Notes under the pieces: generated by a model
Seen by the model: only the letters and a program-made list of their open reading frames with translations
The model's database searches: none
What the model was told of the DNA's origin: nothing
Assembly: GCA_016192205.1 (NCBI GenBank)
Contig: JACPUP010000068.1
Span: 1 to 39,161, forward strand
Length of the DNA stretch: 39,161 bases
Direction: 5' to 3'
DNA from: Candidatus Kerfeldbacteria bacterium
GTDB lineage: Bacteria > Patescibacteriota > Patescibacteriia > SBBC01 > JACPUP01
Made by a program: the position numbers and the translations under genes
Shown: positions 3,042 through 36,560 of the stretch, in pieces
Layout of the letters: each line of letters begins with the position of its first letter
Position numbering within the stretch: the stretch's first letter is position 1

Positions 3042-6000
3042 TCACTGCCGCGGCTCAAGACTCGGCGGCTGGGCTGCACCGCTGACGCCACCCAGCTGAC
3101 TGCGTTCGAGAATGTCAGCCTCGACCTCGGCTCGATCTCGCCCGTATTTGAGGTGCGAGAGCTCGCGAATCGCCCGGGCCACCTCGCTGCTCGTCGGCGA
3201 CGGCGGGAATGTCTGGAGATGGAAAGCCTTGCCCACCGAGTTGTTGATGAGCAACTTCACGTAGGCGTTAAACCGTTCCTGGTTGACCAAGTCGTAGGCG
3301 TCGAACACCGGCGCAAACTCCTTGGCCAATACCTCCGCGTCTTCGACGCCAATCCTGAAGGCGATCTTCGTGCCCACGTTCCCGAGCACTGCATCGCGGA
3401 CTTTGGTGTCACCGCCCGGTGAGAGCTGCCCCATGTACTGGTGGGCCATGGTGAGGTTCAGCCGGTACTTCCGCGCTTCGGACAGGATGGTGGCAATGGA
3501 GTCCGTGATGAAGTTTTGGAACTCGTCAATGTAGAGGTAGAAGTCTTTGCGCTCGGCTTCGGGCTGGCTGGCGCGCGCCAACGCCGCCATCTGGAGCTTC
3601 GACACGATGATGAGCCCGAGCAACGATGCGTTCACCTCGCCGACCTTCCCCTTCGACAGGTTTACCAGGAGAATTTTTTCTTTGTCCATGACCTCGCGGA
3701 AATCAAACCCCGAGCGCGGCTGGCCAATGATGTTCCGCATCATCGCGTTCTCGACGAACCGACCAACTTTAGAAATGAGGTAGCCGAGCATTTCGGATTT
3801 GTGGAAGTCCGAGGTCTTGGCCATCTCCTTTTCCCAGAACGCGCGCACGATCGGGTCGGTCACCTTGGCGAGCTTGTACCGCTGGAACGCCTTGTCCGTG
3901 AAAATGCGCGGGACGTCCGTGATGGTGCCGGGGTACTCACGATCCTCCATGAGCGTCAGCATGGCGTTGCGCATATTGTGCTCGAACATCGGGCCGATCA
4001 TCTCCGGCGGGAACAGCTTGTAGAAAATGGCAATCATCTCCTGCACGGCAAAGTCGCGTTCCTCTGGGGTATCGGCCTCGAGCATATTGAGACCGAGAGG
4101 ACGGACGGTATCCGACGGATCGAACAGGATGACGTCCTCGGCGCGCTCTTTCGGCACCGCGCCGATGACCGCGTCCACGAGCGAGCCGTGCGGATCCACC
4201 ACGCACACGCCACGGCCTTCGCGGATGTCTTGCTTGGCCATTTCCTCCATGAGCACAGACTTCCCCACGCCAGTCATGCCGATGATGTAGACGTGGCGGC
4301 GGCGGTCGTCGGGCGCGATGCGGATGGTGGTGTCGACGCCGCGGTAGCGGTTCAAGCCCAGCACCAACCCCGCCGTTGGTACGTTGACGGGCGCTGGTGC
4401 CTTGCGCGCAGCCAGCCACAGGATGTTTGGCGTTTCCGTGGTCGGCAGCGGCAGGTGGTAGACGCTCGTTAATTCTTCGGAATTGAGGACAAAGCGCATG
4501 CCTTCGTGAAAATGCCGGAAAATAAAATCATGCACGAACCGCGCTTTGTGCAAGGTCGGCTTTTTCTGAAATCCCGTATTCGACTCTTGGGAGGTGTACT
4601 GGGAAAACGCATTCACGACATTCATGAGCGTTGACCGCGCCTGCTCCTGGGTCGGCGCCGACACCACCACGCGGAGGTTCACATCGAACCCGTACTTACT
4701 CGCCTTCTCTTCGAGCGACTTCACGAGCTCCTGGTCCATGGGCGTGAGCGACGGCGGCACTTGCGTTTTCTTGAGCTCCTCTTCTTGGGACTTCGTTTTG
4801 AAGCTGGAGAAGATGGAACCGCTGACCTTGCCCACGGCTGACCAACCACCTCCTCCGACTGCCGCCATGGCCTCGTTGAAATTCTTGCCGTGCTGGACGA
4901 GCCGGGCCACGCGCTGGCCAGCTGCCCGCCAGCCCTTGCGCGCCGGCCGGATGACGTACTGAATGGCCACGCCTTCTTCCGGACCGAGTTTCGACAAGGT
5001 GTTCGTCACGGCATTGAGCGGGTCGGCGTCGAGTTTTCGGTACGTGCGAATCTGGAACATCGAACGGCGCGACAGCCCAAGGTACGTTCCGACAATCTTC
5101 CCCTGCGGCGAAAAAATGTTGTAATCCTCCACTTCCTCAATGTGCGCCTTGTCGTACTGGGCGTGGACTTGCTGTTCCACCAGACGCTGGAGGTGCCGCG
5201 GAACTGCGAGATAGAACACGATCAACCCTTTCTGGGAGACGATCTCGAGCGAGAGTTGGTCATTCCGGCCATGCCAAAAGTTCAGCCAACTCGTGTGGAG
5301 CACATTGCGGCCCTGCTCGGGACGGATGTTGCCTAGGTTCAAGTAGAGCGTTTCGGCAGCTGCCAAGAGCTCTTTCGGGTCAGGCGCGGGCTGGCCTTCT
5401 TTCGTTCCCGCTTCTTTGGGCACGAGCACGCGGAGGATGACGAGCTGGAGCGACAAGGGCAGCTTGTTCGATCGGCGCAAGCCCAGGCGGATGAGTGCGA
5501 TGACGGCGACCGCGACACCGATGGCGAGCACCCCCAGCAGAATGAGCTGCACGATGGGCTGCTCGAGCAACCCGTCCGCTCCATCCGACGCGCTGGCCGA
5601 CGGCCCAACCGACAACCCCAACTGGAGCACAGCGTGCAATCGCTGGCCCCGCTTCTTTTGCGCTAGGGCGATAACCTGGTCAGCTTTGATCTTGGCTTCT
5701 TGCTCGAGGAAGAACCGGTTGACGCCCGGGATGAGCTTGAGCCAGCCGCGGATGAGGTTCAAAATGGATTTCGTCTTGAGCTTGACCTGTTCGATGAGCC
5801 GGCCAATGCGCGTGGCCACCTCTTCGCCCTCGCGACGAAACCGCTCTTGGTCCTCGGGCGACAGCCGCACGTACACGTCCTGCAAATCCTCGGCCAAGAT
5901 GTGCTCGATTTCAAGCACAAGTGAACTCTTTGCTCCAGGCGGTACCGGCGACAGTGGGGTGGGGACCGGCGCTGGTGCCGGACGCTCGGCCGGCGCTGGC

Positions 6001-24135: not shown

Positions 24136-24210
24136 TAGCCCCATCGGGATTTGAACCCGAGTTTTCTGGATGAGAACCAGATGTCCTAGACCGGTCTAGA
24201 CGATAGGGCC
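24136..24210 (-). tRNA. tRNA-Glu (anticodon CUC)
   Basis: 75-nt cloverleaf folded by hand. Acceptor GGCCCTA/TGGGGCT, anticodon stem TCTGG/CCAGA with loop TTCTCAT, T-arm TCGGG-TTCAAAT-CCCGA. The TCGTCTAG...GGACA D-region resembles bacterial tRNA-Glu. CCA is not encoded. Confidence 0.85.
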
Positions 24211-24281
24211 TCGCTCCTCCGGGCGGGCGTGGCGCACGCCGGGAATACGACTCTAGCAGAGTCGAGGGTGAGCGACAAGCC

Positions 24282-24464
24282 CTACTCGTGCGCGTGCGCA
24301 GTCGCGATCGCAGCCAGCATACCGAAGATGCCGAGCTGCAGGTAGAAGTCCGAGGTCAGGTAGATATTCGTGCCGTAGACCTCGGTGACGACCGCAAAGA
24401 GCGCCAGCACGAGCCCGAACCAGAAGAACGCCTTGCCGAGGACCTTGTTGGAAAGTGACATCAT
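24282..24464 (-). CDS. small two-helix membrane protein (60 aa), translationally coupled to gap
   Basis: ATG at 24464 overlaps the gap TGA as ATGA, and a GGGGGTGAGG purine tract lies upstream. Sequence MMSLSNKVLGKAFFWFGLVLALFAVV...LGIFGMLAAIATAHAHE. Confidence 0.5.
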   Translation of the reverse strand: MMSLSNKVLGKAFFWFGLVLALFAVVTEVYGTNIYLTSDFYLQLGIFGMLAAIATAHAHE

Positions 24465-25501
24465 GTTCGCCTCACCCCCTTTCGCGTGGTTGATACCGAC
24501 GCAGCACCAATCGAAGCCGCCAGTTCCACCAGGCGGTTGGCGTAGCCCCACTCGTTGTCGTACCAGGCCAAGACGCGGACGAGCGTGCCGTTGACCTGGG
24601 TGGAGAGACCATCAATGATGGCCGAGTGTGGGTTATGGACAATGTCGCTCGACACGAGCGGCAGGTCCGAGTACTCGAGGATGCCCTGGAGCGCTCCGCG
24701 AGCGGCGGCCGCCTGGAACGTGCGGTTGACCTCGTTGGCATCGCGCGGGGCCTTGCGCACGACCGCCACGAAATCCGTGATCGAACCGCAGGGTGTGGGC
24801 ACGCGCAAAGCCAGCCCCTCGAGTTTCCCTTTCAGGTGCGGGATGGTTTTGGTCGTGGCCTGCGTCGCGCCGGTCGTGGTCGGGATAATGTTGAGGGCGG
24901 CGGCCCGGGCCCGGCGCAAATCTTTGTGTTCCAAATCCAAAATGCGCTGGTCATTCGTGTACGAGTGCACGGTCGTCATCATTCCGCGCACGACGCTGTA
25001 GTGCTGGTCAAGCACTGCCACGACAGGCGAAAGTGAGTTCGTCGTACAGCTGGCATTCGACACGACGACATCCGACGGCTGGCACGCCTCCTCATTGACG
25101 CCGCGCACGACGGTGACGTCAGCGTCGTCAGACGGCGCCGAAATGATAACCCGCTTGGCCCCGGCTTTGACGTGGGCCAGGGCATCGGCCTTCTTCGTAA
25201 ACCGGCCGGTGCACTCCAGCACCACATCAATGCGCAACCGCTTCCACGGCAACTTGGCTGGGTCTTTCTCTGACAGCACCCTGACCGTTCGGCGCCCCAC
25301 CCGGATTGCCCCTGTGAGTGCCCGGACGGGTTCTGACAGCTCGCCGTGGACCGAATCATGCTTGAGCAGGTGGGCGCTTGTTGCCGCGTCGCCCAAGTCA
25401 TTGAGCGCGGCAAAAGTGAGGTTCGGCAACGACAACCCCGCCCGCAGCGCCAGGCGCCCGATGCGACCGAACCCGTTAATGGCGATGCGAATTGGTTTCA
25501 T
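24461..25501 (-). CDS. gap: type I glyceraldehyde-3-phosphate dehydrogenase
   Basis: INGFGRIGR NAD-binding motif, catalytic SNASCTTN, TTVHSYTNDQ, and WYDNEWGY near the C-terminus. Confidence 0.95.
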   Translation of the reverse strand: MKPIRIAINGFGRIGRLALRAGLSLPNLTFAALNDLGDAATSAHLLKHDSVHGELSEPVRALTGAIRVGRRTVRVLSEKDPAKLPWKRLRIDVVLECTGRFTKKADALAHVKAGAKRVIISAPSDDADVTVVRGVNEEACQPSDVVVSNASCTTNSLSPVVAVLDQHYSVVRGMMTTVHSYTNDQRILDLEHKDLRRARAAALNIIPTTTGATQATTKTIPHLKGKLEGLALRVPTPCGSITDFVAVVRKAPRDANEVNRTFQAAAARGALQGILEYSDLPLVSSDIVHNPHSAIIDGLSTQVNGTLVRVLAWYDNEWGYANRLVELAASIGAASVSTTRKGVRRT

Positions 25502-26388
25502 AGGTGTTTTGGGAATGCTCGGCCGCGACCTTCAGAGCCGAAGAGGCGGAGTTTGTCGGCCGTCAGAGCTTCCACCGCATCAATGGACGGTTCGAGCAGA
25601 TCGCGCGGGTCGTACTCGTCAGGCAGCTCCCGAGCGGTCTGGCGCAGCTGGTCGGTGAACGCGAGCTCGAGTTCGGTGACGATGTTGATAATCTTGATCC
25701 CGCGACCGATCGCCGCTTCGAGCTGTTCATGTTTCAAAGCCGAGGCGCCGTGGAGGACAAGGGGGATATCGGGGATGGATTCGTGGATGGCGGCCAACCG
25801 GTCCAGATCGAGCGGGGGCGCCCCCTGGCGCATCTTGCCTCTACCGTACACGTTTCCGACGGCAACGGCAAGCGTGTCGATTCCCGTTGCTTTCACGAAC
25901 GCCACGGCTTCGCGTGGGTCGGTCAGGTACCGCTGCCGGTCGGCTGCCGCGGCAAACTCCTCGGCCGTCTTCACGTTCCCAATCTCGCCCTGGGCGAGCG
26001 CGTTGCGCTTGTGCGCGTAGTCCACGGCCTGGCGCGTCAAGATGACGTTCTCATCGAACGGCAAGTCGGATGCGTCAATCATGATGGACGAGAAACCAGC
26101 GTGGATGCACTCGGCGATGGAACGGAAGGACTTCGCGTGGTCGAGGTGGAGCGCAACCGGCACGTTCACCGCGGAGTTCTTCGCGATAGTCTCGACGATG
26201 TGCGTGATGGGTTTCAAACCCGCGTACTCGATGGTCGTTTCGGTCACGGTGATGATGACCGGCGCTTGGACCTCGACCGCGGCCCGGATGATGCCGAGCG
26301 TCATCTCGAGATTGACCGTGTTGAACGCGCCAATGGCGTACTGGTGTTTGGCAGCGTGCTGGAGGAGTTGACGGACCGAGACGAGCAT
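25498..26388 (-). CDS. fba: class II fructose-bisphosphate aldolase family protein
   Basis: 296 aa. YAIGAFN, ALHLDHAKS, LVLHGAS and a TIM-barrel pattern. ATGA overlap with the gap start. Confidence 0.9.
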   Translation of the reverse strand: MLVSVRQLLQHAAKHQYAIGAFNTVNLEMTLGIIRAAVEVQAPVIITVTETTIEYAGLKPITHIVETIAKNSAVNVPVALHLDHAKSFRSIAECIHAGFSSIMIDASDLPFDENVILTRQAVDYAHKRNALAQGEIGNVKTAEEFAAAADRQRYLTDPREAVAFVKATGIDTLAVAVGNVYGRGKMRQGAPPLDLDRLAAIHESIPDIPLVLHGASALKHEQLEAAIGRGIKIINIVTELELAFTDQLRQTARELPDEYDPRDLLEPSIDAVEALTADKLRLFGSEGRGRAFPKHL

Positions 26389-26391
26389 ACG

Positions 26392-27105
26392 TTAGAGGAG
26401 GGCCACGAGTGAACGCGCGCGGAGCGACGCCTGGCCGACCAGGCCGCCGCGGAAGTGGACGCCGTCGAGGAACGACGCCGCATTCCGCTGGACCACGCTG
26501 CCGCCGTAGATGAGCGGCTGCGACCGACCGCCAAGCGTGCGCCAGATGACGCGCGCCATGCGGAACGCTTCAGCCGGGGCAATGGGACCGCCGGGCGAAA
26601 TGGCCCAGACGGGCTCATAGGTCACGAGAACGTTTCGGCGCTGGGCAGGCGAAACACGTTCCAGCGCGCTCCGCAGCTGCTGTTGGACCACGCGGACCGC
26701 TCGGCCGGCCTTCCGGTCTGCCCAGCGTTCGCCAATGCACAGGACTGGCGTGAGACGAGCGCCCAGCGCCGTTTTCACCTTGGCGTTGACCTGTGCGTCG
26801 GTCTCGCCCAGGGCCCGGCGGTCCGAATGCCCGACAATCACGTACTGGCAGCCATAGGCCTTGAGGTCGCGAGCTGAAACGTCACCGGTGTACGGACCTT
26901 TGAGCGACGGTGACAAGTCTTGGCCGCCCAGGGCAATGGGCGAGCCGTGGAGGACGCGGCTGACTGCGCCAATGGCCGTGGCGGACGGACAGAGCACCAG
27001 CCTTGACCGACGCGGCAATCGAGAATGCCGCAGCATCAATGCCACGTGCACGGCTTGGCTGACCGTGAGCTGCATTTTCCAGTTGGCGATGATGAGCCGC
27101 TGCAT
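26392..27105 (-). CDS. tpiA: triosephosphate isomerase
   Basis: Start at ATG 27105 (MQRLIIANWKM), one nt after the upstream stop. Catalytic Lys (NWK), His (GHSDRR) and Glu (YEPVWA), plus IYGGSV. The track ORF extension to 27147 is rejected. Confidence 0.9.
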   Translation of the reverse strand: MQRLIIANWKMQLTVSQAVHVALMLRHSRLPRRSRLVLCPSATAIGAVSRVLHGSPIALGGQDLSPSLKGPYTGDVSARDLKAYGCQYVIVGHSDRRALGETDAQVNAKVKTALGARLTPVLCIGERWADRKAGRAVRVVQQQLRSALERVSPAQRRNVLVTYEPVWAISPGGPIAPAEAFRMARVIWRTLGGRSQPLIYGGSVVQRNAASFLDGVHFRGGLVGQASLRARSLVALL

Positions 27106-27106
27106 A

Positions 27107-27601
27107 TTAGAAGACGCGTTGGAGGCCGACGGTCGCCGCACCAACAATAATGCCGGCCGCGGCTACGCCCACGACCAGCGCCGGGATGCTCACGCGCCGC
27201 GACACGCCAAACAGAAACGCGGCCACGGAGCCGGTCCACGCGCCCGTGACCGGCAGCGGGATGGCGACGAACGTGGCGAGTGCCAGGAATTGGCCATAGC
27301 GCGCAAAGTGGTGTTCACTTTTTCGCCGAGTCCGGGCCAACAGCCAAGAGAAAAAGCGTTGCATGGCGCTTGAGTGCACGGACAGCCGATGCGACAGCGG
27401 TCCAAGCGCATAGAGAAGGATCACGGCCGGGATCATGTTCCCAACGAGTGATAAGAGGTAGGCGCTCCAAAACGGGAGGTCGTACACGGTGAGCGCAATC
27501 GGCAAGGCCAGCCGCAGTTCGGCGATCGGGAGCATGGCGATGAGCACAGTCGCCAGTGCCGGCGGAATGCCGCTGAAGAAGGTCGCGAGCGCTTCACTCA
27601 T
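27107..27601 (-). CDS. small membrane protein (putative small multidrug export / COG2426-like)
   Basis: Start at ATG 27601 (MSEALATFF...), overlapping the scpB end by 8 nt. LPIAELRLALPIAL motif and 4-5 TM helices. Confidence 0.7.
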   Translation of the reverse strand: MSEALATFFSGIPPALATVLIAMLPIAELRLALPIALTVYDLPFWSAYLLSLVGNMIPAVILLYALGPLSHRLSVHSSAMQRFFSWLLARTRRKSEHHFARYGQFLALATFVAIPLPVTGAWTGSVAAFLFGVSRRVSIPALVVGVAAAGIIVGAATVGLQRVF

Positions 27602-28202
27602 GGCGCTGCCCCTCCTCAGCGGTCGGCACCTCCTGCGCCCTTGCTTCATCGACCGGTACCCGCTCCTCGACCTGGGCCAGGAGTTCCTGGAGATTCTCGT
27701 CATTGCGCAACTGCTCGTAGTCCGGCAATTCTTCAGTGCTCCGGAGTCCCAGGAACCGGAGGAAATCAAAGGTGATGTGGTAGCGCGTCACCAGCGCCTC
27801 TTTGTCTTCTTCGGCTTCGACGAGACCTTTAATCATCAGATGGCGCAGGATGAGCGCGCAGTTCACCCCGCGGATGTGGTCGAGTTCGGCTTTGGTGATG
27901 GGTCCACGGTACGCAATAATGGTGAGCGTCTCAATGGCCGGGTCGGTCAGCTCACCGGACTGCTCGTCCTTCAAAAACGCGGCCACGGTCTTGGCGGCCA
28001 ACGGACTCGTGACCATCTGTACTTGCTGGCCGTGCTGCTGGATTTGAATCCCCTTCTCGTCGCGGTTGTACTCGGACTTCAACTCCGCCAGCACCTGCTG
28101 CACCGCCTCGACTGGCGCGTCGGCGAGTCCGGCCAGTTTCTTGATGGACAACGGCTTGGCCGCAGCGAACAGGAGGCTCTCGACATTCCGGCGGACGCTC
28201 AT
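27594..28202 (-). CDS. scpB: segregation and condensation protein B
   Basis: VESLLFAAAKPLSIKKLA...LTDPAIETLTIIAYRGPITKAELDHIRGVN is the tandem winged-helix ScpB pattern. Confidence 0.9.
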   Translation of the reverse strand: MSVRRNVESLLFAAAKPLSIKKLAGLADAPVEAVQQVLAELKSEYNRDEKGIQIQQHGQQVQMVTSPLAAKTVAAFLKDEQSGELTDPAIETLTIIAYRGPITKAELDHIRGVNCALILRHLMIKGLVEAEEDKEALVTRYHITFDFLRFLGLRSTEELPDYEQLRNDENLQELLAQVEERVPVDEARAQEVPTAEEGQRHE

Positions 28203-28957
28203 ACGGACTCCCCGTCAGCCTCGGCTCGGACAATCGCAATCTCTTGGAACATCCCGTCTTGGACCACGGCAATCGTCCGCTGCTTCACGAGCTCCAGCAA
28301 GGCCAGGAAGGTGACGATGACGTCCACTTTGGAGCGGGATTCGTCCAGCAAGCGGGAAAAATTGAGCGACGTCTCGGCGAGCACCCGCTCGCGAATGGCG
28401 CGGATCTTTTCTTGGAGGTTCAAGGTGCGGACAATGATTTCCCGGGGCAACCGGATGACTGGCTCGAGGCGGTTGAGCACGGTTTGGAACGTCTCGTGGA
28501 GCATCGAGACTTCCAGGCGCGTCGGCGGCGTGAACACGGGCAGCGGCGGCAGCTGTTGGCGGGGGTAGAGCACGCGCTTTTTCCGGAGGAGCTTCCGGAG
28601 CGCCTTGGCCGCGTCGAAGTACACCTTGTACATTTTCAACTGCCGCTCGAGGTCGCGGCTGTCGTCGTCCTCCGCCGCTTCCAAATACGGCAACAGCACG
28701 CGCGACTTGATGAGGATGAGCTTGGCCGCGACCACGAGGAAATCCGCCAGTTCCTCGGGGTTCTTCTGTCCGACCTGCTGGAGGCTGACGATGAACTGCT
28801 CGGCGACCTGCGCGAGCGAGACGTCCGTAATGTCGAGCTTCTCGGCTTCGATCAGCTCGAGGAGGAGGTCGAGCGGCCCTTCAAACTTTTCAACGCGGAT
28901 GGTGAGCACTGGTTTGGTTTTCGTTCCTTTCTTTTTTTCGTTTCGGTTTCTCGGCAA
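28199..28957 (-). CDS. scpA: segregation and condensation protein A
   Basis: FEGPLDLLLELIEAEKLDITDVSLAQVAEQF kleisin N-terminus. ATGA overlap with scpB. An alternative GTG start at 28909 would shorten the overlap with the upstream ORF. Confidence 0.9.
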   Translation of the reverse strand: MPRNRNEKKKGTKTKPVLTIRVEKFEGPLDLLLELIEAEKLDITDVSLAQVAEQFIVSLQQVGQKNPEELADFLVVAAKLILIKSRVLLPYLEAAEDDDSRDLERQLKMYKVYFDAAKALRKLLRKKRVLYPRQQLPPLPVFTPPTRLEVSMLHETFQTVLNRLEPVIRLPREIIVRTLNLQEKIRAIRERVLAETSLNFSRLLDESRSKVDVIVTFLALLELVKQRTIAVVQDGMFQEIAIVRAEADGESV

Positions 28958-29450
28958 TCGCGCCGGTGACCGGCTGTTCCGACCGTTCGAAATCTTTGAC
29001 TTTCAGGCGCAGCGAGTGCGTGAACGAGCCGGCCCCGAACAGCGCATGACCAACCTTCCGGAGGCCGGCGTCCATCACGACCTTGAGCCGGTGGTGGCCG
29101 CCGAACGGCGTCTGCGCACCAGCTTCACCTTTCGTGGCCTGTGCCACCTCTTTCTCGGACGCGATGGTGACCTTTTTCGCGCCGAGCAGTTTTTTCACCT
29201 TGGCCAGGTCAACGCGCACATGGGCCGGCAGGACCGCGAGAACGTGATGGATGCCTTTCTGTTCCTGGGGATCATCCGACAGTTTTTTCGGCTCATGCAC
29301 CTTTAAGACGAGCGTCTTCGCCACAGCCTGCAGTTTCTCCTTGGTCGTTTGCGCCAAATCATAGGCCGTGTAGATGGTCTTGTGCTCCACCACGTCAAAC
29401 TTGAGCTTCTGCTTTTTCAAGTAGCGCTGGAGTTGGGCTGGGATGCTCAT
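28890..29450 (-). CDS. YbaK/ProX-type aminoacyl-tRNA deacylase domain protein
   Basis: 186 aa. AKTLVLKV (conserved Lys region) and GEAGAQTPFGG resemble the YbaK/EbsC editing domain. The basic C-terminal tail overlaps the scpA start. Confidence 0.7.
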   Translation of the reverse strand: MSIPAQLQRYLKKQKLKFDVVEHKTIYTAYDLAQTTKEKLQAVAKTLVLKVHEPKKLSDDPQEQKGIHHVLAVLPAHVRVDLAKVKKLLGAKKVTIASEKEVAQATKGEAGAQTPFGGHHRLKVVMDAGLRKVGHALFGAGSFTHSLRLKVKDFERSEQPVTGAIAEKPKRKKERNENQTSAHHPR

Positions 29451-29761
29451 AGGGATTTGGCGCGTTTGGTATTGAAGGCGAACTGTTGCTGTTGGCCGAG
29501 GAGGGCCCGGGCAGTGCGCCGGCCTTTGGCGGTCAGCCGCACCTCATCAATGAACCACTTGTGCGGCGTGCGCCGGCCAAAGCCGACCAGGAGCTCTTTG
29601 TCGATGAGCCGCTCGAGTGAGCGGGTGATGACATTATCTGGGTCTTTGGGTTTAACCTTAGCCTGGTTGTAAAAGGCCTTGAACTGGCGGCGCGGGCAGC
29701 GCTGGCGCGGACTGCCATGGGTCTCCGTCAGGATGTACCGCTGGAGCCGGGAGAGCGTCAT
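29447..29761 (-). CDS. small basic protein, winged-helix-like (104 aa)
   Basis: ATG at 29761; the track start at 29773 is GTG and lies inside the -10 box. ATGA overlap with the downstream gene. No family recognised. Confidence 0.55.
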   Translation of the reverse strand: MTLSRLQRYILTETHGSPRQRCPRRQFKAFYNQAKVKPKDPDNVITRSLERLIDKELLVGFGRRTPHKWFIDEVRLTAKGRRTARALLGQQQQFAFNTKRAKSL

Positions 29762-29771
29762 ACCCAGCCTC

Positions 29772-29800
29772 ACTATACCACAAATCGGGAAGAAACGGAA
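29772..29800 (-). promoter_or_regulatory. extended -10 promoter (TTCCGT-17 nt-TGgTATAGT)
   Basis: Minus strand: TGg TATAGT (-10 at 29777-29772) with 10 nt to the ATG at 29761. Weak -35 TTCCGT. Confidence 0.5.
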
Positions 29801-29815
29801 GATACAGTGTATTCT

Positions 29816-31198
29816 CTACTTCTTCACTTGGATGTGGACGTCCTTCAGTTGCTCGTCTGAAAGTTCGCTGGGTGCGCCGAGCATCAGGTCTTTGGCGTCG
29901 GTGGTTTTCGGGAAGGCCATGACCTCGCGGATGTTGGGCTCGTTTTCCAAGACCATCATGAGCCGGTCGAGCCCGGGCGCAATGCCGCCGTGGGGCGGAG
30001 CGCCGTAGGTGAGCGCCTTGAGAAACGCGCCGAACTTCTCCTCGATTTGGGCCTCGGAGTTTCCGAGCAGGGAAAAAATCTTACGTTGAAGTTTGGCCTC
30101 GTGATTGCGGATGCTGCCGGAGGCCAGCTCGACGCCGTTGAGGACAAGGTCATATTGGAAACTTCGCGCTTGCAGCGGATCGGTGTCGAGCAGCGGTATA
30201 TCCTCGTCGTGCGGTCGCGTGAACGGGTTGTGCGCGAACGTGAGTTTACCGTCAGCAGCCTGCTCGAAGAGCGGAAAGTCTGTGATCCAGCAGAACGCGA
30301 GCTCGTCGGCGTTCTCCGAGTCCTTCCGCAGATCGGGCCGGTCGGTCTTGAACTTCTTCATCACCTCGTCATAGCTCATTCGCGGCCAGGGTGCCTGCGC
30401 GATGCGTTTGCCAGGATAGACTTCCGTGAGCATGGCGGTGAGCAGTTCTTCCATCAGCTGCCAAACGTCCGCGGGTTCGACGAACGACATCTCGAGGTCG
30501 AGCTGCGTGTGCTCGGGTTGGCGGTCGCCGCGTTCGTCCTCGTCGCGGTAGCAGCGGGCAAATTGATAGTACTTTTCGAAGCCGGCGACCATGAGGAGTT
30601 GCTTGAACGTCTGCGGCGCTTGCGGCAGCGAGTAGAACTTGCCGGGGTAGAGCCGCGACGGTACCACGTACTCGCGCGCGCCCTCGGGACTGTCTTTAGT
30701 GAGCACCGGCGTTTCGATCTCGACGAACCCGCGACTATCCAGCCACTGCCGGCAAAAGTGTGCCACGCGTGAGCGGTTGCGCAGATTTTTCTGCAAGCGG
30801 TTGCTGCGGAGGTCAAGGTAGCGGTACTCGAGCCGGAGCTCCTCTTTGACGTCTTTCGTGTCGGCGTCCACCTCGAACGGTGGGGTCTCGGACGCATTCA
30901 AGATGGTGAGCTGCTCGGCGACGAGCTCGACCTCGCCCGTTGGCAGGTTCGGGTTCTTCTTCTTCCGTTCCACCACGTTTCCGGACACGGCGATAACGAA
31001 CTCGGCCCGGAGTTGGTCAGCCGTCGTGTGCGCTTGTGGAAAGTCCGGGGAAAAAACCACTTGGACAATGCCGCTGCCGTCTCGCAGGTCAATGAAGATG
31101 AGCTTGCCGAGGTTGCGGCGCACGTGCACCCAGCCCTTGAGCGTCACGGTTTTGCCGACAGCGTTGGTCGTCTCGATGGCGAGTGTTCGGTTGCTCAT
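29816..31198 (-). CDS. aspS: aspartate--tRNA ligase (bacterial-type core without the GAD insertion domain)
   Basis: Start at ATG 31198 (MSNRTL...), overlapping the asnS stop as ATGA. LPQAPQTFKQLLMVAGFEKYYQFARCYRDEDERGDRQPEHTQLDLEMSF (motif 2) and GGIAPGLDRL (motif 3). The sequence passes from DRPDLR almost directly to FCWITDFPLFE. Confidence 0.92.
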   Translation of the reverse strand: MSNRTLAIETTNAVGKTVTLKGWVHVRRNLGKLIFIDLRDGSGIVQVVFSPDFPQAHTTADQLRAEFVIAVSGNVVERKKKNPNLPTGEVELVAEQLTILNASETPPFEVDADTKDVKEELRLEYRYLDLRSNRLQKNLRNRSRVAHFCRQWLDSRGFVEIETPVLTKDSPEGAREYVVPSRLYPGKFYSLPQAPQTFKQLLMVAGFEKYYQFARCYRDEDERGDRQPEHTQLDLEMSFVEPADVWQLMEELLTAMLTEVYPGKRIAQAPWPRMSYDEVMKKFKTDRPDLRKDSENADELAFCWITDFPLFEQAADGKLTFAHNPFTRPHDEDIPLLDTDPLQARSFQYDLVLNGVELASGSIRNHEAKLQRKIFSLLGNSEAQIEEKFGAFLKALTYGAPPHGGIAPGLDRLMMVLENEPNIREVMAFPKTTDAKDLMLGAPSELSDEQLKDVHIQVKK

Positions 31199-32514
31199 GG
31201 CCGCAAACGGTTCAACAGCCGCGGGAACGGAATGGCCTCGCGGATGTGCTCGATGCCGCCGATCCAACGCACCAGGCGCTCCAGGCCAATGCCAAACCCC
31301 GAATGCGGCACCGACCCGTACTTCCGCAAGTCGAGGTACCAGGCGTAATCCGACTCCTTGAGCTTCCACTCCCTAAGGCGCTTTTTCAGCAGTTCGTAGT
31401 CGTCAATGCGCTGCGACCCGCCGATGATTTCGCCGAAGCCCTCGGGCGCAATGAGGTCAGCACAGAGCACGCGCTCGGGGTGGTCCGGGTGCGGTTGCAT
31501 GTAGAACGCCTTGATGGTGGTGGGGAAGAACTCGATGAACACCGGCTGGTCGTAGTCTTGGGAAATGAGTTCTTCCTCGGGCGCGCCAAAATCGTCACCG
31601 AGCTTTATCTTCGAACCCTGCTTGATGAGTCGCGCGACGGCCTCATCGTAGGTGAGGCGCGGGAACGGCGCGGTGATCTTGGCGAGCGTGGAAACGTCCC
31701 GGCCGAGGATCTCGAGTTCGCGCAGCCGCGCCTTGACCGTCTCGGCAATGACGTCAGCGATGAGGTGCTCCTGAATCTCGAGGTTGCCGACGTGGTCCAC
31801 GAACGCCGCCTCGGCGTCCATCATCCAGAACTCGACCAGGTGCTTACGCGTCTTGGATTTTTCCGCGCGGAAGGTCGGGCCGAAATCGTAGACGCGGCCC
31901 AAGGCCATGGCCGTGGCCTCAAGATAGAGCTGGCCGGTCTGGGCCAGGAAGGCCGGCTCACCGAAGTAGTCGGTTTTGAACAGCGTGGTCGTGCCCTCGG
32001 CCGCCGTGGGGGTGAGGATGGGCGAGTCCGTCAGAACGAAATCGTGCGCATGGAGCCAGGAGCGCAGCTGCCAGACCACCTCATCGCGCAACCGCAAGAT
32101 GGCTGACTGCTTCTCGGAGCGCAGCCACAGGTGCCGCTGGTCGAGGAGGAAGTCCGGACCGTGCTCCTTTTTGCCGATCGGGTACTCCGCGGCTTTTTGC
32201 ACGAGCTCGAACTGCACGACCTTCATCTCCCAGCCAGACGGGCTGCGCGGTTCGTTCTTCACCTCCCCCGTGATGCGGACGGAGGACTCGAGCGTGGCGT
32301 CTTTCGCCGCTGCAAACGTCTTCGCGTCAACCGCGTCTTTCGCTACCACCGCCTGAATCACACCAGTGCCGTCACGGACCTGGAGAAAGATGAGCGCGCC
32401 AGACGAGCGGACATTGGCAACCCAGCCAGCGATGGTGCCGCTGGTGGGCTTGGTGAGCTTGGCGATAGTCAGGGGGGAAGGAGGCATACGACCCGTATGC
32501 CGGTCGGATGGCAT
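31195..32514 (-). CDS. asnS: asparagine--tRNA ligase
   Basis: FRAEKSKTRKHLVEFWMMDAE (motif 2), YAWYLDLRKYGSVPHSGFGIGLERL (motif 3), and HLWLRSEKQSAILRLR. The start is ambiguous between ATG 32514 and ATG 32487. ATG 32529 abuts the -10 box and is unlikely. Confidence 0.9.
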   Translation of the reverse strand: MPSDRHTGRMPPSPLTIAKLTKPTSGTIAGWVANVRSSGALIFLQVRDGTGVIQAVVAKDAVDAKTFAAAKDATLESSVRITGEVKNEPRSPSGWEMKVVQFELVQKAAEYPIGKKEHGPDFLLDQRHLWLRSEKQSAILRLRDEVVWQLRSWLHAHDFVLTDSPILTPTAAEGTTTLFKTDYFGEPAFLAQTGQLYLEATAMALGRVYDFGPTFRAEKSKTRKHLVEFWMMDAEAAFVDHVGNLEIQEHLIADVIAETVKARLRELEILGRDVSTLAKITAPFPRLTYDEAVARLIKQGSKIKLGDDFGAPEEELISQDYDQPVFIEFFPTTIKAFYMQPHPDHPERVLCADLIAPEGFGEIIGGSQRIDDYELLKKRLREWKLKESDYAWYLDLRKYGSVPHSGFGIGLERLVRWIGGIEHIREAIPFPRLLNRLRP

Positions 32515-32529
32515 TGGCAATATGCTCAT

Positions 32530-32558
32530 AGTGTAGGTTCGAATCGGTCGCCAGTCAA
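32530..32558 (-). promoter_or_regulatory. sigma70-like promoter (TTGACT-17 nt-TACACT) for asnS-aspS
   Basis: Minus strand: -35 TTGACT (32558-32553), 17-nt spacer, -10 TACACT (32535-32530). Confidence 0.55.
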
Positions 32559-32597
32559 TGAAGGCTGGGTCTTCATCCATCCGACGGCCGCCAGCGA

Positions 32598-33188
32598 TCA
32601 GGTGTCGGTCGTCGGCAGCTTGGGAAACGGCTTTTGAAAACGCGCAGCAAAGTACCAGGCCGCGCCAGCGGCAGCCAGAAAGTTCCACAGCAGGTCGTCG
32701 GCCGTGTCATAGAGGTCGGTCACGCGCACGGTATCAAACAGCCAGTCGCCCACGTACTCGCTCACCTCGTAGAGCCCGGCCAGCAGCATGGCCACGCTGA
32801 CCGCGTACAACCAGTGATGGAACGCTGGCAGCGAGAGCCGTCGGTTCTCGAGAAACAGCTTGAAGCTCAACCAAACTGCGCCAGCGACTGCGGCCGTACC
32901 AACGACGTGCGCGAGCTTGTCCCACCACGCGATGTTCGCATAGAGGTGCGCGAAATTCCCGGCCGCGTCGAACCAGATTGCCGCTACGGCCAGCCAGCTG
33001 ACGGCTGCTGGCAGTCGGCTTCCGGCACGGATGAATCGCGACCCGATGAAGATGAGCAATCCCGTGCCAACGACGTTGGTGACCGCCAGGGCGATCTGGC
33101 GCTCAAGGGTATCGTACCGAGCGATGAGCTCGATCCCGAGCAACACCGCTTGCAGCGGAAGCATTGGCCGGGGAAGCAACCGGCTCAT
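32598..33188 (-). CDS. multi-pass membrane protein of unknown function
   Basis: 196 aa with about 5 hydrophobic helices. ATGA overlap with the stop of the P-type ATPase. Confidence 0.65.
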   Translation of the reverse strand: MSRLLPRPMLPLQAVLLGIELIARYDTLERQIALAVTNVVGTGLLIFIGSRFIRAGSRLPAAVSWLAVAAIWFDAAGNFAHLYANIAWWDKLAHVVGTAAVAGAVWLSFKLFLENRRLSLPAFHHWLYAVSVAMLLAGLYEVSEYVGDWLFDTVRVTDLYDTADDLLWNFLAAAGAAWYFAARFQKPFPKLPTTDT

Positions 33189-35938
33189 GCGGAGTGCGGG
33201 TTACGCCAGCGCACGATTGCTTTGCGCATCTCTTCGACGACCAGGACCGGCAGTCCGAACGCGAGCACGAGAGCCCAGTCAGCCAGCGAGAGCGGCGCGA
33301 CGTGGAAGACCTCAGCCAGGGCTGGGAGGTAGAGAATCGCCAGGTGCATGGCCACCACCATGACCAAGGTTGGCCAGAGCAGCGCGTTCGTCCAGAACAT
33401 CCTGAAGAGCGAGGTACGACGAGCGCGGAACGCGAAGGCGGACAGCCACTCGCCCAGAGCGATGGTTGTCAGCGTCATCGCGAGCACGTGTTCGCGCCGG
33501 GCGTCCGTGCGGATCTCCATAAGGAAGACGGCCAGTGCGCTGAGGCCGATGACCGCGGCCAACAGGAAGATCCGCAACCACTGCTGCCCGCTGATAATGG
33601 GTGCGCGGAGCGGCCGTGGCGGCTCGTGGAGGATGGTGGCCTTGCGCGGCTCACGGGCCAAGGCGATGCCCATGAACGGATCAGTAATGGCGTTGAGCCA
33701 GATAATCTGCGTTGGCAGCAGCGGCAGCGGAAGCCCGCCGAACAACGCAACGAGGATGAGCAGTAATTCGGAAAAGTTCGACGCCAACAGGAACATGAGC
33801 ACGCGCTGGATGTTCCGGTAGATGTTCCGGCCCTCGGCAATCGCGGCGACGATGGAGGACAGCCGGCCGTCTGTGACCACCATGTCCGAGGCTTCCTTCG
33901 CCGCGTCCGTCGCGCCCTGGCCAATGGCAATGCCGACGTTCGCTTCGGACAGCGCTGGCACGTCATTGATGCCATCGCCGGTCATGGCCACGACCTCCTG
34001 CCGGGCTTTGAGCGCGCGGGCAATGCGGAGTTTCTGCTCGGGCGAGACGCGGCTCGCGACCCGGAGCGTGGGCAGTCGCTCCGCAAGTTCATCGTCCGAC
34101 AACGTTGCCAGCTCCTCGCCGTCAATGAGCGCGTCGTGTTGACCGGCCTCGAGTAAATCCACCTCCTGGCCGACCGCGGCTGCGGTCACGCGGTAGTCAC
34201 CAGTCAACATCATGAGCTTGATGCCGGCGCGCTGCGCGGTTTCCATGGTCTGACGCGCCTCTGTGCGGATGGGATCGCGCAAGCCCGCGAGTCCGAGGTA
34301 CGTGAGTTTACCTTTGAGCTCGTGCGCTTCCAGGGACCGCCAGTCATCCTTCGTTTCGGCGTAGGCAATGGCCAATCCGCGCAGGGCCCGACTGGCCATC
34401 TGCTCGTACCGCTCCCGAACCTCGCGCCGGTGGCGGTCCGTCATGGTCTGGACCTTCCCGTCAATGGAAATGTTCCCGCAGAGGTCGAGAATCTGTCGCG
34501 GCGCGCCTTTGACAGCCACGAACTGCTTGCCGGCCTCGTCCGTGCGGTGGAACGTGACCATGTACCGCAACGCGAAATCAAACGGGAATTCGCCGACGCG
34601 CGGCATCGTCTCGTTGAGCTTGCGCGCTGGGAGCCCGGCTTTGGCGCCGGCAACGAGCAAGGCGATTTCCGTTGGGTCGCCAATGGGTTGCTGCTGGCCG
34701 TCCGCGGCAGTGGAGAAACGCGCATCGTTGCACAACACGCCGACGCGCAGAGCGAGCGCGACCTCGGGGTGTTCCAACGGATCAGCCGGTTGATCATCAA
34801 GGTAATAATCGCCCTGCAGCCCATACCCCTCGCCGGAGACGCGGTAGGTCCGACCAATGGTAACAACTTCCTCCACCATCATTTGGCCGTGGGTGAGCGT
34901 GCCGGTTTTGGCAGCGGCAATGATCGTCACTGACCCGAGTGACTCGACCGCAGCCAGCCGGCGGATGAGCGCTTTCCGCTTGGCCATCTGCCACATGCCG
35001 AAGGCGAGCGTAATGGTGATGACCACGGGCAGCCCCTCGGGGATGAGCGAGACGATGAGGCTAACCGAGAGCAGGAAGATTTCCTGGATGGCAAAATCGC
35101 GGAACAGGCCGACGACGAACACGATGGCCGCGAAAATGATGATGGCAACCGTGAGCTTCTTCGCGAATGAGCCGAGGTTTTGCTGGAACGGCGTTTCCTC
35201 ACGTCCGGTGTGGCTCACCGCGCGGACAATCTGGCCGAGCCGCGTGGCCATGCCCGTGCTGGTGACCAGGAGCCGGCCGCGGCCGTTCACGACCGTGGTC
35301 CCGCGCCAAGCCATATCGGTCTGGTCAGGTTGTCCGGTCGGCTCGGGAACGGGCTCGCTCCCCTTTTCGGCTGGCACGGACTCGCCGGTGAAGACGGCTT
35401 CGTTAATCTTGAGGTTGACGGCTTCGATGAGGCGGCCATCAGCCGGAATGACCACGCCGGACTCGAGCACGACCACGTCGCCCGGCACGACCTCTTCGCT
35501 GGGCACCAACCGTTCGTCGCCGTCACGGATGACGTGGACCTCCTGCGGCGTGAGTGAGCGGAGCTGTTCCATGGCCTGGCCAGCCCGGCGCTCCTGGATG
35601 AATCCCACCACGGCGTTCACAATGACCACGCCGAGGATGACGTAGCCGTCCGTCATCTCCCCAACGAGGAGGCTCACGATGGCCGCGATGAGCAGAATCA
35701 GGATGAGCGGGCTCTTGAATTGCGCAACCAGCAACAGCAGCGCGCTCGGCGGACCACGGTGCTCGACGCGGTTTGGGCCGTGCTCGGCGAGGCGCTTGGC
35801 CGCCTCCTCGCGAGTCAGGCCATTGGTGGTCACCTCGAGCTGCGCGGCAACATCGGGGACGCTCAAGCTATGCCAGCTGAGGACTTTCACACGCAAAGAC
35901 AAAACTGATACTTCACGTCTGGAAGTGTACCACAACAC
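33185..35938 (-). CDS. P-type (E1-E2) cation-transporting ATPase, P2-like, with AKTGT instead of DKTGT
   Basis: TGES (VFTGESVPAEK), PEGLP, KGAPRQIL, MLTGD, TGDGINDVPAL and a C-terminal TM bundle are all present. The phosphorylation motif reads IIAAAKTGTLT. The true start may be GTG 35890 (VKVLSWHSLS), because a TGgTACACT -10-like box lies at 35929-35924. Confidence 0.9.
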   Translation of the reverse strand: MLWYTSRREVSVLSLRVKVLSWHSLSVPDVAAQLEVTTNGLTREEAAKRLAEHGPNRVEHRGPPSALLLLVAQFKSPLILILLIAAIVSLLVGEMTDGYVILGVVIVNAVVGFIQERRAGQAMEQLRSLTPQEVHVIRDGDERLVPSEEVVPGDVVVLESGVVIPADGRLIEAVNLKINEAVFTGESVPAEKGSEPVPEPTGQPDQTDMAWRGTTVVNGRGRLLVTSTGMATRLGQIVRAVSHTGREETPFQQNLGSFAKKLTVAIIIFAAIVFVVGLFRDFAIQEIFLLSVSLIVSLIPEGLPVVITITLAFGMWQMAKRKALIRRLAAVESLGSVTIIAAAKTGTLTHGQMMVEEVVTIGRTYRVSGEGYGLQGDYYLDDQPADPLEHPEVALALRVGVLCNDARFSTAADGQQQPIGDPTEIALLVAGAKAGLPARKLNETMPRVGEFPFDFALRYMVTFHRTDEAGKQFVAVKGAPRQILDLCGNISIDGKVQTMTDRHRREVRERYEQMASRALRGLAIAYAETKDDWRSLEAHELKGKLTYLGLAGLRDPIRTEARQTMETAQRAGIKLMMLTGDYRVTAAAVGQEVDLLEAGQHDALIDGEELATLSDDELAERLPTLRVASRVSPEQKLRIARALKARQEVVAMTGDGINDVPALSEANVGIAIGQGATDAAKEASDMVVTDGRLSSIVAAIAEGRNIYRNIQRVLMFLLASNFSELLLILVALFGGLPLPLLPTQIIWLNAITDPFMGIALAREPRKATILHEPPRPLRAPIISGQQWLRIFLLAAVIGLSALAVFLMEIRTDARREHVLAMTLTTIALGEWLSAFAFRARRTSLFRMFWTNALLWPTLVMVVAMHLAILYLPALAEVFHVAPLSLADWALVLAFGLPVLVVEEMRKAIVRWRNPHSA

Positions 35939-36024
35939 CGTCGACGCGTACTGATACGGGGAGTCGGGTGCGCAGGCCGAGTAGGTCTCGGCTTGCTATG
36001 CACCGGAGCAAAGCGACTGGTGCA

Positions 36025-36100
36025 TGGTGGGAGCGGTGGGATTCGAACCCACGACCCACGGCTTAAAAGGCCGCTGCTCTACCAGCTGAGCTACACTCCC
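36025..36100 (-). tRNA. tRNA-Lys (anticodon UUU)
   Basis: 76-nt cloverleaf: GGGAGTG-TA-GCTC-AGCTGGTA-GAGC-A-GCGGC-CTTTTAA-GCCGT-GGGTC-GTGGG-TTCGAAT-CCCAC-CGCTCCC-A-CCA. CCA is encoded. Confidence 0.9.
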
Positions 36101-36109
36101 TCGGCCCAG

Positions 36110-36170
36110 ACGATACCAGCATTTACATGCTTGGTCAATCACCAAAACCATTATTAGTAAAACAAATATT
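36110..36170 (-). promoter_or_regulatory. tRNA-Lys promoter (TTGACC-17 nt-TATCGT) with an AT-rich UP-like element
   Basis: Minus strand: -35 TTGACC (36138-36133), 17-nt spacer, -10 TATCGT (36115-36110), 9 nt before the mature 5' end. An AT-rich stretch at 36139-36170 lies upstream of the -35. Confidence 0.55.
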
Positions 36171-36234
36171 GGCCAGCTCCGCTGGCCGGAAATTTGCGAC
36201 CCAGGGGAGGGGCTGGGAATAAACGCCCCTCCCC
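36171..36234. other. two perfect GC-rich hairpins
   Basis: GGCCAGC-tcc-GCTGGCC (36171-36187), and GGGGAGGGGC (36204-36213) pairing with GCCCCTCCCC (36225-36234) across an 11-nt loop. Confidence 0.6.
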
Positions 36235-36289
36235 TACGTCGCGCCTACCCCACCCTTCCACCGGTGAGGCCTGGTACGGCTAACGCTCC

Positions 36290-36515
36290 GGGCGCTCGCT
36301 GCTGCTCGGCCCTCCGCTGCACTGGCGAGGCTTTTTTCTCTTTGTTTTCAGATAAAAAAGAAAAAACATACCGAGCGACGTCACCGGCCGCGCAGGGTGA
36401 GCGAAGCGAATCCCGGAGCGTGCCGTACTGCACCCGCCGCACCAAGGGGGTTGGGGGTACGGCCTACCCCGCCGTAGGGCGGGGTGGCCTCAAGATGCCA
36501 ACCTAGGTTGACAAA
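36290..36515. repeat. structured GC-rich intergenic element, copy A
   Basis: Core GGGTACGGCCTACCCCGCCGTAGGGCGGGGTGG (36455-36487) with stem ACCCCGCC/GGCGGGGT. Block AAGCGAATCCC (36404-36414) is enclosed by stem GGGTG/CACCC (36395-36399 with 36431-36435). Homologous to the reverse complement of 21984-22145. Confidence 0.45.
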
Positions 36516-36517
36516 CC

Positions 36518-36560
36518 AAAAAACCCCAGGAAGGCGCTGTGCCTTTCCCTGCAGAAAGGC
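36518..36560 (-). terminator. rho-independent terminator of the exonuclease gene
   Basis: Minus strand after the stop codon: GCCTTTC-TGCAGG-GAAAGGC, or alternatively CAGGGAAAGGC-ACAGC-GCCTTCCTG, followed by GGGG TTTTTT. Confidence 0.6.

Follow-up and report, generated by a model that had tools for sequence, protein, structure and literature searches.

The stretch of DNA analyzed here, called the window below, comprises 39,161 nucleotides of contig JACPUP010000068.1 from a Candidatus Kerfeldbacteria bacterium, has a GC content of about 61% and carries tightly packed genes. One of these genes, on the minus strand at 33185..35890, is predicted to encode a P2A-type (SERCA/PMR1-like) P-type ATPase, in which the aspartate that is phosphorylated in this superfamily is replaced by alanine. 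As deposited, the gene starts from GTG at 35890, ends with the stop codon TGA at 33185-33187 and encodes 901 amino acid residues; this start is common to the deposited protein (P0121) and the Logan gene calls. The open reading frame extends upstream without interruption to a first GTG at 35938, which gives the 917 residues described in the initial annotation of this DNA. The gene is preceded by a tRNA-Lys(UUU) gene (36025..36100, minus strand) and followed by a gene for a membrane protein of 196 residues (32598..33188, minus strand).

Read directly, the minus strand from 34924 to 34898 is ATT GCC GCT GCC AAA ACC GGC ACG CTC, which is translated into I-A-A-A-K-T-G-T-L. The codon GCC at 34910..34912 (minus strand) therefore gives Ala in place of the phosphorylated Asp (Ala327 in the 901-residue numbering, which is used below, and Ala343 in the 917-residue numbering), and the motif at 34898..34912 (minus strand) is AKTGT where every relative has DKTGT. 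In a phmmer comparison with the PDB, the query segment ...tiiaaAktgtlt... was aligned without gaps with ...svictDktgtlt... of the Ca2+-ATPase LMCA1, so that the Ala sits on the residue that is phosphorylated in solved Ca2+-ATPases; the replacement of DKTGT by AKTGT pointed out in the initial annotation was thus confirmed. As judged from its sequence, the gene is a member of the P-type ATPases by descent, and the deposited allele is one without the catalytic residue.

Since a test against chance is inapplicable to a single base, sister sequences are the relevant comparison. We compared the window with three independent Logan assemblies, which were made from different runs of the same population: SRR12113422 (L001, 8.1 kb), SRR12113419 (L002, 12.4 kb) and SRR12113385 (L003, 11.5 kb). 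Their ungapped nucleotide identities to the window are 99.876%, 99.960% and 99.809%, respectively. At base 34911, where the minus strand of the window has C (G on the plus strand), all three have A, and their codon is GAC for Asp. The single transversion from GAC to GCC that the initial annotation had supposed is therefore the A-to-C difference actually seen between the assemblies, and the three sister sequences, one base apart from the window, have the phosphorylatable Asp in DKTGT. Across the 9.1 kb from 36489 to 27389, L002 is the same as the window with base 34911 as the sole difference. At the protein level, the cluster at 90% identity consists of three sequences, namely P0121 of the window and P0001 and P0122 from the three Logan assemblies; the latter two carry Asp, P0122 being the same as the window protein except for D327A and P0001 differing also at H4L.

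The four sequences show 29 variable sites, about 10 of them non-synonymous, over a shared region of 12.3 kb. Two of the 29 are private to the window: base 34911 (Asp to Ala) and base 24998, a synonymous change from TAT to TAC (Tyr) in the GAPDH gene. Apart from base 34911, the ATPase gene has seven variable sites; six are synonymous and the other one, H4L, lies at the extreme N-terminus, so that the gene is under purifying selection in this population.

The wider homologues were searched for among 5.8 billion protein clusters, and the best 120 were examined. All of these 120 have DKTGT. The top match is P0001 (about 100% identical to the window protein), followed by a sister clade with 45-66% identity, several members of which are labelled Candidatus Kerfeldbacteria, and by many P2A ATPases with about 40% identity; among reference genomes, a Candidatus Kerfeldbacteria metagenome-assembled genome (MAG) comes nearest, with 52% protein identity. 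When the window protein was aligned with 119 homologues by MAFFT, 61 columns were invariant, and the window deviates at only one of them, D327. Among the 127 columns with at least 95% conservation, the window protein has two additional deviations, N192D and S823A, each of which is also found in three homologues. The initial annotation had raised the question of relaxed conservation at other catalytic positions, and no such relaxation was found among these homologues: no invariant column besides D327 is affected. Relaxed constraint elsewhere in the ATPase was accordingly rejected, the Asp being the one deviating column of 61 and both N192D and S823A having counterparts in homologues. The loss of Asp occurs in one of four near-identical sequences and in none of 117 other homologue clusters (those among the 120 best matches when P0001 is grouped with the near-identical sequences); this is not the pattern of a pseudo-enzyme, in which the loss should be common to a clade under purifying selection. 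Because the three near-identical assemblies read GAC and DKTGT is present in all 120 homologues, the Ala, on the sequences compared, is not a trait of the lineage.

As a control, a regular expression for the phosphorylation motif was run over all 89 fetched loci, including L001-L003 and 80 loci from reference genomes. It found 84 motifs with one further exception, at 4961-4987 of locus L058, a contig of a Fischerella sp. MAG (NODE_10, cov 3.6), in which SGKTGT replaces SDKTGT with the codon GGC (Gly) at 4973-4975. The L058 reading frame is otherwise intact (1,011 residues), and the change from GAC to GGC is a single transition. One-off losses of the phosphorylated Asp thus do occur in MAG data.

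The remaining features of the window protein are those of a complete P-type ATPase. On the minus strand, TGES, the dephosphorylation motif of the A domain (35378..35389), and TGDGINDVPAL, which in the P domain forms the hinge and binds Mg (33950..33982), are intact both by reading of the motifs and by the comparison of invariant columns; PEGLP (35027-35041), KGAP of the N domain (34499-34510), DPIR of the P domain (34265-34276) and MLTGD (34196-34210) are also present. The statement of the initial annotation that all other hallmarks are in place holds for TGES, PEGLP, KGAP, MLTGD, TGDGINDVPAL and the C-terminal domain, to which DPIR can be added, and the protein has each of the superfamily features TGES, DPxR, TGD, TGDGxNDxPAL and KGAP. 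The alignment to profile hidden Markov models proposed there was carried out. Pfam models PF00690, PF00122, PF13246, PF00702 and PF00689 (N-terminal, E1-E2, Cation_ATPase, hydrolase and C-terminal domains) all scored above their cut-offs, and they trace the full P-type architecture, with Cation_ATPase_N, the A domain with M1-M4, the N domain inside a HAD-type P domain and a C-terminal transmembrane bundle. The general P-type model of NCBIfam, TIGR01494, gave 287 bits against a cut-off of 62.3. The top NCBIfam models were TIGR01522 (PMR1-type; 605.4 bits against a cut-off of 798.3) and TIGR01116 (SERCA-type; 560.3 against 703.4); both scores are below the equivalog cut-offs, with the PMR1-type and SERCA-type still being the closest subfamilies, and the window protein is therefore not an orthologue of either SERCA or PMR1.

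Residues matching Ca2+ sites I and II of SERCA lie within 33446..35041 (minus strand): E in PEGLP (35027-35041), N and E in SNFSE (33767-33781), N, T and D in NAITD (33680-33694) and E in LGEW (33446-33457). In an ungapped alignment with segments of SERCA1a, all seven Ca2+ ligands are kept (the equivalents of E309, N768, E771, N796, T799, D800 and E908) and D351 alone is replaced; this match is a lead rather than a database result. The P2A set of ligands (Glu in M4; Asn and Glu in M5; Asn, Thr and Asp in M6; Glu in M8) is, on the same segments, complete, and suggests two SERCA-like ion sites. From these features, we infer that the gene is an ordinary P2A-type (SERCA/PMR1-like) export ATPase of a Kerfeldbacteria-like Patescibacteria bacterium, and hence of a kind already known, with Ca2+ as the probable and Mn2+ as a possible substrate.

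The best relative with a solved structure is LMCA1 of Listeria monocytogenes, a bacterial P2A ATPase (PDB 6ZHF, 6ZHG, 6ZHH and 9EUQ; E = 8e-151 over aligned residues 27-908). LMCA1 agrees with the window protein in the order of its domains and in the motifs of the A, P and N domains, but it has DKTGT; furthermore, its residues in place of the M8 Glu and the M5 Glu of the window protein are Arg and Ala, respectively. Because of these two differences, the window protein looks like a two-site, SERCA-like ATPase rather than a one-site, LMCA1-like one. Among the eukaryotic P2A ATPases (SPCA1/PMR1 and SERCA1a/SERCA2), the PDB comparison gave E = 1e-145 to human SPCA1 and about 1e-120 to 1e-123 to SERCA; the window protein is shorter (901 residues) than these, and Ala stands at the D351 position in one contig alone. 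Moreover, the window ATPase is coupled to a Patescibacteria-specific membrane partner and not to regulators of the phospholamban or sarcolipin type. Within the Patescibacteria, its closest kin are the Kerfeldbacteria/Patescibacteria clade annotated as 'HAD-IC family P-type ATPase' (P0002-P0036; loci L004, L084-L086, L088 and L089), which are 44-66% identical to the window protein and have the same order of ATPase and DUF2238-like partner, often with downstream Asp/Asn-type tRNA synthetase genes as well; they differ in that every member has DKTGT.

The partner (32598..33188, minus strand) is a distantly DUF2238-like protein with six predicted helices. Its ATG overlaps the TGA of the ATPase gene at 33185-33188 (...GCATGAGCC...), as the initial annotation had described for this ATGA coupling. 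The start of the partner is ambiguous, since the deposit has 188 residues from an internal Met (P0123) and Logan has 196 residues from the overlapping ATG; the overlapping start is found also in L084, L085 and L089. The partner family is small (33 clusters), and the few clusters with a source name bear the label Patescibacteria or Kerfeldbacteria. When 22 members were aligned, 22 positions proved invariant, mostly charged or aromatic, among them the cluster D74, N78, H94, E141, E144 and D148. In its AF2 model, which is confident (pLDDT 91.7), the partner folds into a six-helix bundle, and a Foldseek search of this model against the PDB gave no match with E < 1. Precomputed annotation assigns PF09997 (DUF2238) to all members of the family, whereas in our own hmmscan the window copy had no match to PF09997 and two relatives scored 13-15 bits, below the gathering cut-off of 26.4.

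In each of the seven loci examined from this clade, the partner directly follows the ATPase; these are the window, L004 (6658-7299), L084 (6694-7257), L085 (6718-7323), L086 (6736-7332), L088 (5001-5588) and L089 (5001-5564). The overlap of the two genes is 4 bp long in the window, L084, L085 and L089 and 37 bp long in L086, whereas 9 bp separate them in L088. Among 80 more distant ATPase loci, an adjacent partner was found only in the one from Kerfeldbacteria. The ATPase has DKTGT in all six relatives that bear the partner, so that the coupling is a feature of active pumps and lends no support to a special role of the Ala allele. For the partner, a role as an accessory subunit or one related to metals is conceivable.

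In L085 (2735-3991) and L089 (1050-2291), a gene for an Nramp (Mn2+/Fe2+) transporter lies directly upstream of the orthologous ATPase; in L089, the Nramp gene is itself preceded by another P-type ATPase. The window has no Nramp gene at that place, where the tRNA-Lys gene precedes the ATPase. The combination of Nramp and ATPase in L085 and L089 suggests a cluster for the homeostasis of divalent metals (Ca2+/Mn2+). Downstream of the ATPase-partner pair, the window has two adjacent genes for class IIb aminoacyl-tRNA synthetases of the Asp/Asn/Lys type (29816-32688, minus strand; tRNA-synt_2 with an anticodon-binding OB domain), with products of 439 and 460 residues and a 4-bp overlap in the gene calls. 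This arrangement is kept in L084, and also in L088 with other genes between the two synthetases.

The region shared with the sister assemblies has some further peculiarities. From 24136 to 36489, the window is an apparent mosaic of two haplotypes, being L002-like from 36489 to 27389 and then carrying L003 alleles at 27388, 27385 and 25972; this could be a natural recombinant or a mixed-strain consensus. The stretch 36480-36530 is apparently either a place where the assembly breaks locally or a hypervariable spot: the ends of L001 and L002 both fall at 36489 and L087 begins at 36480, with a 1-bp indel from the window in an A-run (36505) and clustered single-nucleotide polymorphisms (SNPs) at 36523, 36529 and 36541 in the intergenic stretch. 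Scans with exact patterns across the Ala codon, with N at 34911, found neither allele in GTDB representative genomes or JGI metagenome contigs. Exact-protein look-ups with the Ala protein and two other window proteins found none on record; with DnaB, the look-up gave one more short contig, which has ordinary SNPs and a 1-bp intergenic indel compared with the window.

From these comparisons, we consider it very likely that the Ala is a private, non-conserved difference of a single base in an ordinary pump gene. Several observations speak against so simple a reading. The exact Ala version of the protein is found in NCBI nr, so that the substitution is part of the deposit and not a later introduction; the private SNP at 24998 and the mosaic of L002 and L003 set the window somewhat apart as a consensus or strain, so that a private mutation in it could be real; and the population is known from four observations only. 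In addition, the comparison was made on assembled contigs, at which level an artefactual origin and a real allele are not separable. The initial annotation had offered two explanations, a base-call or assembly error and a seemingly conserved pump unable to form the phosphoenzyme. The former is fully viable. The latter fails as a feature of the lineage, because closely related genomes with GAC at this codon, which the annotation itself had named as refuting evidence, were found in the three assemblies that are 99.8-99.96% identical, and all 120 homologues have DKTGT. Two origins of a private difference can be proposed, and we regard them as about equally likely: a consensus artefact, and a genuine loss-of-function allele, very recent or in the minority, in the sampled population, the latter being a possibility that the initial annotation had not listed.

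In the first case, the true sequence would be GAC, and the C at 34911 would be a miscall that became the consensus at low coverage, or the wrong path through a bubble in a mixed-strain assembly or co-assembly; this origin we tentatively put at just under an even chance. The Ala is a singleton when compared with three independent assemblies, and its haplotype shows no other difference over 9.1 kb, which is consistent with this origin, as is the invariance of the residue in 119 of 119 homologues: real variants there should be strongly selected against, while errors fall at random and reach invariant residues more readily than surviving mutations. The Asp-to-Gly one-off in the 3.6x-coverage MAG (L058) is analogous, and a mosaic of two haplotypes is frequent in the consensus of a mixed population. 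On the other hand, the map of open reading frames shows no broken genes in the window, the one other private difference in 12 kb is a synonymous transition resembling a real SNP, and consensus errors from short reads are rare per base.

In the second case, a sub-population would carry D327A and with it an unphosphorylatable, non-transporting pump that is transiently tolerated or conditionally neutral; tolerance may come, for example, from another Ca2+/Mn2+ exporter or from a host environment that buffers the ion. This too is possible, at close to even odds. The population is polymorphic, with its 29 variable sites, about 10 of them non-synonymous, and in such a population real SNPs are far commoner than consensus errors; together with the second private SNP, which looks genuine, this favors a real allele and roughly cancels the argument from the randomness of errors. 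Assemblers normally discard bubbles of low coverage, so that the C would have needed appreciable read support, and the second P-type ATPase near the locus in some relatives (L089) may point to redundancy in the clade. Against this, Asp is present in all three other assemblies, and the remaining changes of the ATPase within the population are synonymous except for H4L, indicating active purifying selection. No further decay is seen in the form of altered invariant columns, a frameshift or a stop codon, and the allele, if real, would be of extremely recent origin.

With either origin, the normal Asp version is expected to operate as a standard E1-E2 pump: cytoplasmic ions would bind at the sites formed by M4, M5, M6 and M8, the gamma-phosphate of ATP would be transferred to Asp327, the transition from E1P to E2P would free the ions outside, and TGES would catalyze the dephosphorylation. 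The Ala327 version, if present in cells, should bind ATP and ions and form no aspartyl-phosphate, and so would not pump. This expected null phenotype is based on mutants of SERCA at D351 and of Na,K-ATPase at D369, in which reportedly neither phosphoenzyme nor transport remained and nucleotide binding was retained. The engineered SERCA D351A/N and Na,K-ATPase D369N/A proteins have the same residue replaced as in the window; they are laboratory constructs, whereas the change in the window is found in a deposited contig of an environmental genome.

An evolved pseudo-enzyme, in which a phosphorylation-dead homologue is maintained and reused as a sensor, a binder of ion or ATP, a channel or a scaffold for the co-translated partner, is highly improbable. 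The intact reading frame, the preservation of the other motifs and the coupling to a conserved partner gene fit such a protein, and SERCA D351A is said to bind nucleotide still tightly, which makes a role in binding alone biochemically conceivable. However, a pseudo-enzyme should show a clade-wide substitution together with relaxed TGES, TGD and TGDGxND, none of which is seen; Ala occurs in no relative, even in strains that are about 99.9% identical, and outside the window, the partner is coupled to DKTGT ATPases in all six loci examined, so that the coupling belongs to active pumps. We see a similarly slim chance that GCC is real and dominant in a sub-population, in which the dead pump would be kept with its six-helix partner for ion or ATP sensing or for a regulated leak. 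The least probable of all, with practically no chance, is a misalignment in which another Asp is the phosphorylation site of an active pump: no point in its support was found, and a different Asp taking over was rejected because the alignment with LMCA1 and SPCA1 is gapless around the motif (E about 1e-150) with identical flanks (SLG...KTGTLT), the M4-P segment of SERCA gives the same ungapped register, and T-I-I-A-A-A ahead of KTGT contains no acidic residue.

As this case cautions, the loss of a catalytic residue in a single MAG contig calls for a comparison with sister assemblies and reads prior to any interpretation. Had a conserved P-type ATPase lacked the phosphorylated Asp, it would have been a notable pseudo-enzyme; instead, what is found is a private difference of one base in one contig. 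Should the GCC form nevertheless prove to be kept in a sub-population, it would be a naturally occurring, freshly born P-type pseudo-ATPase. For the family itself, a modest lead is that ATPases of this clade are conservedly coupled to a small, uncharacterized, Patescibacteria-specific membrane protein.

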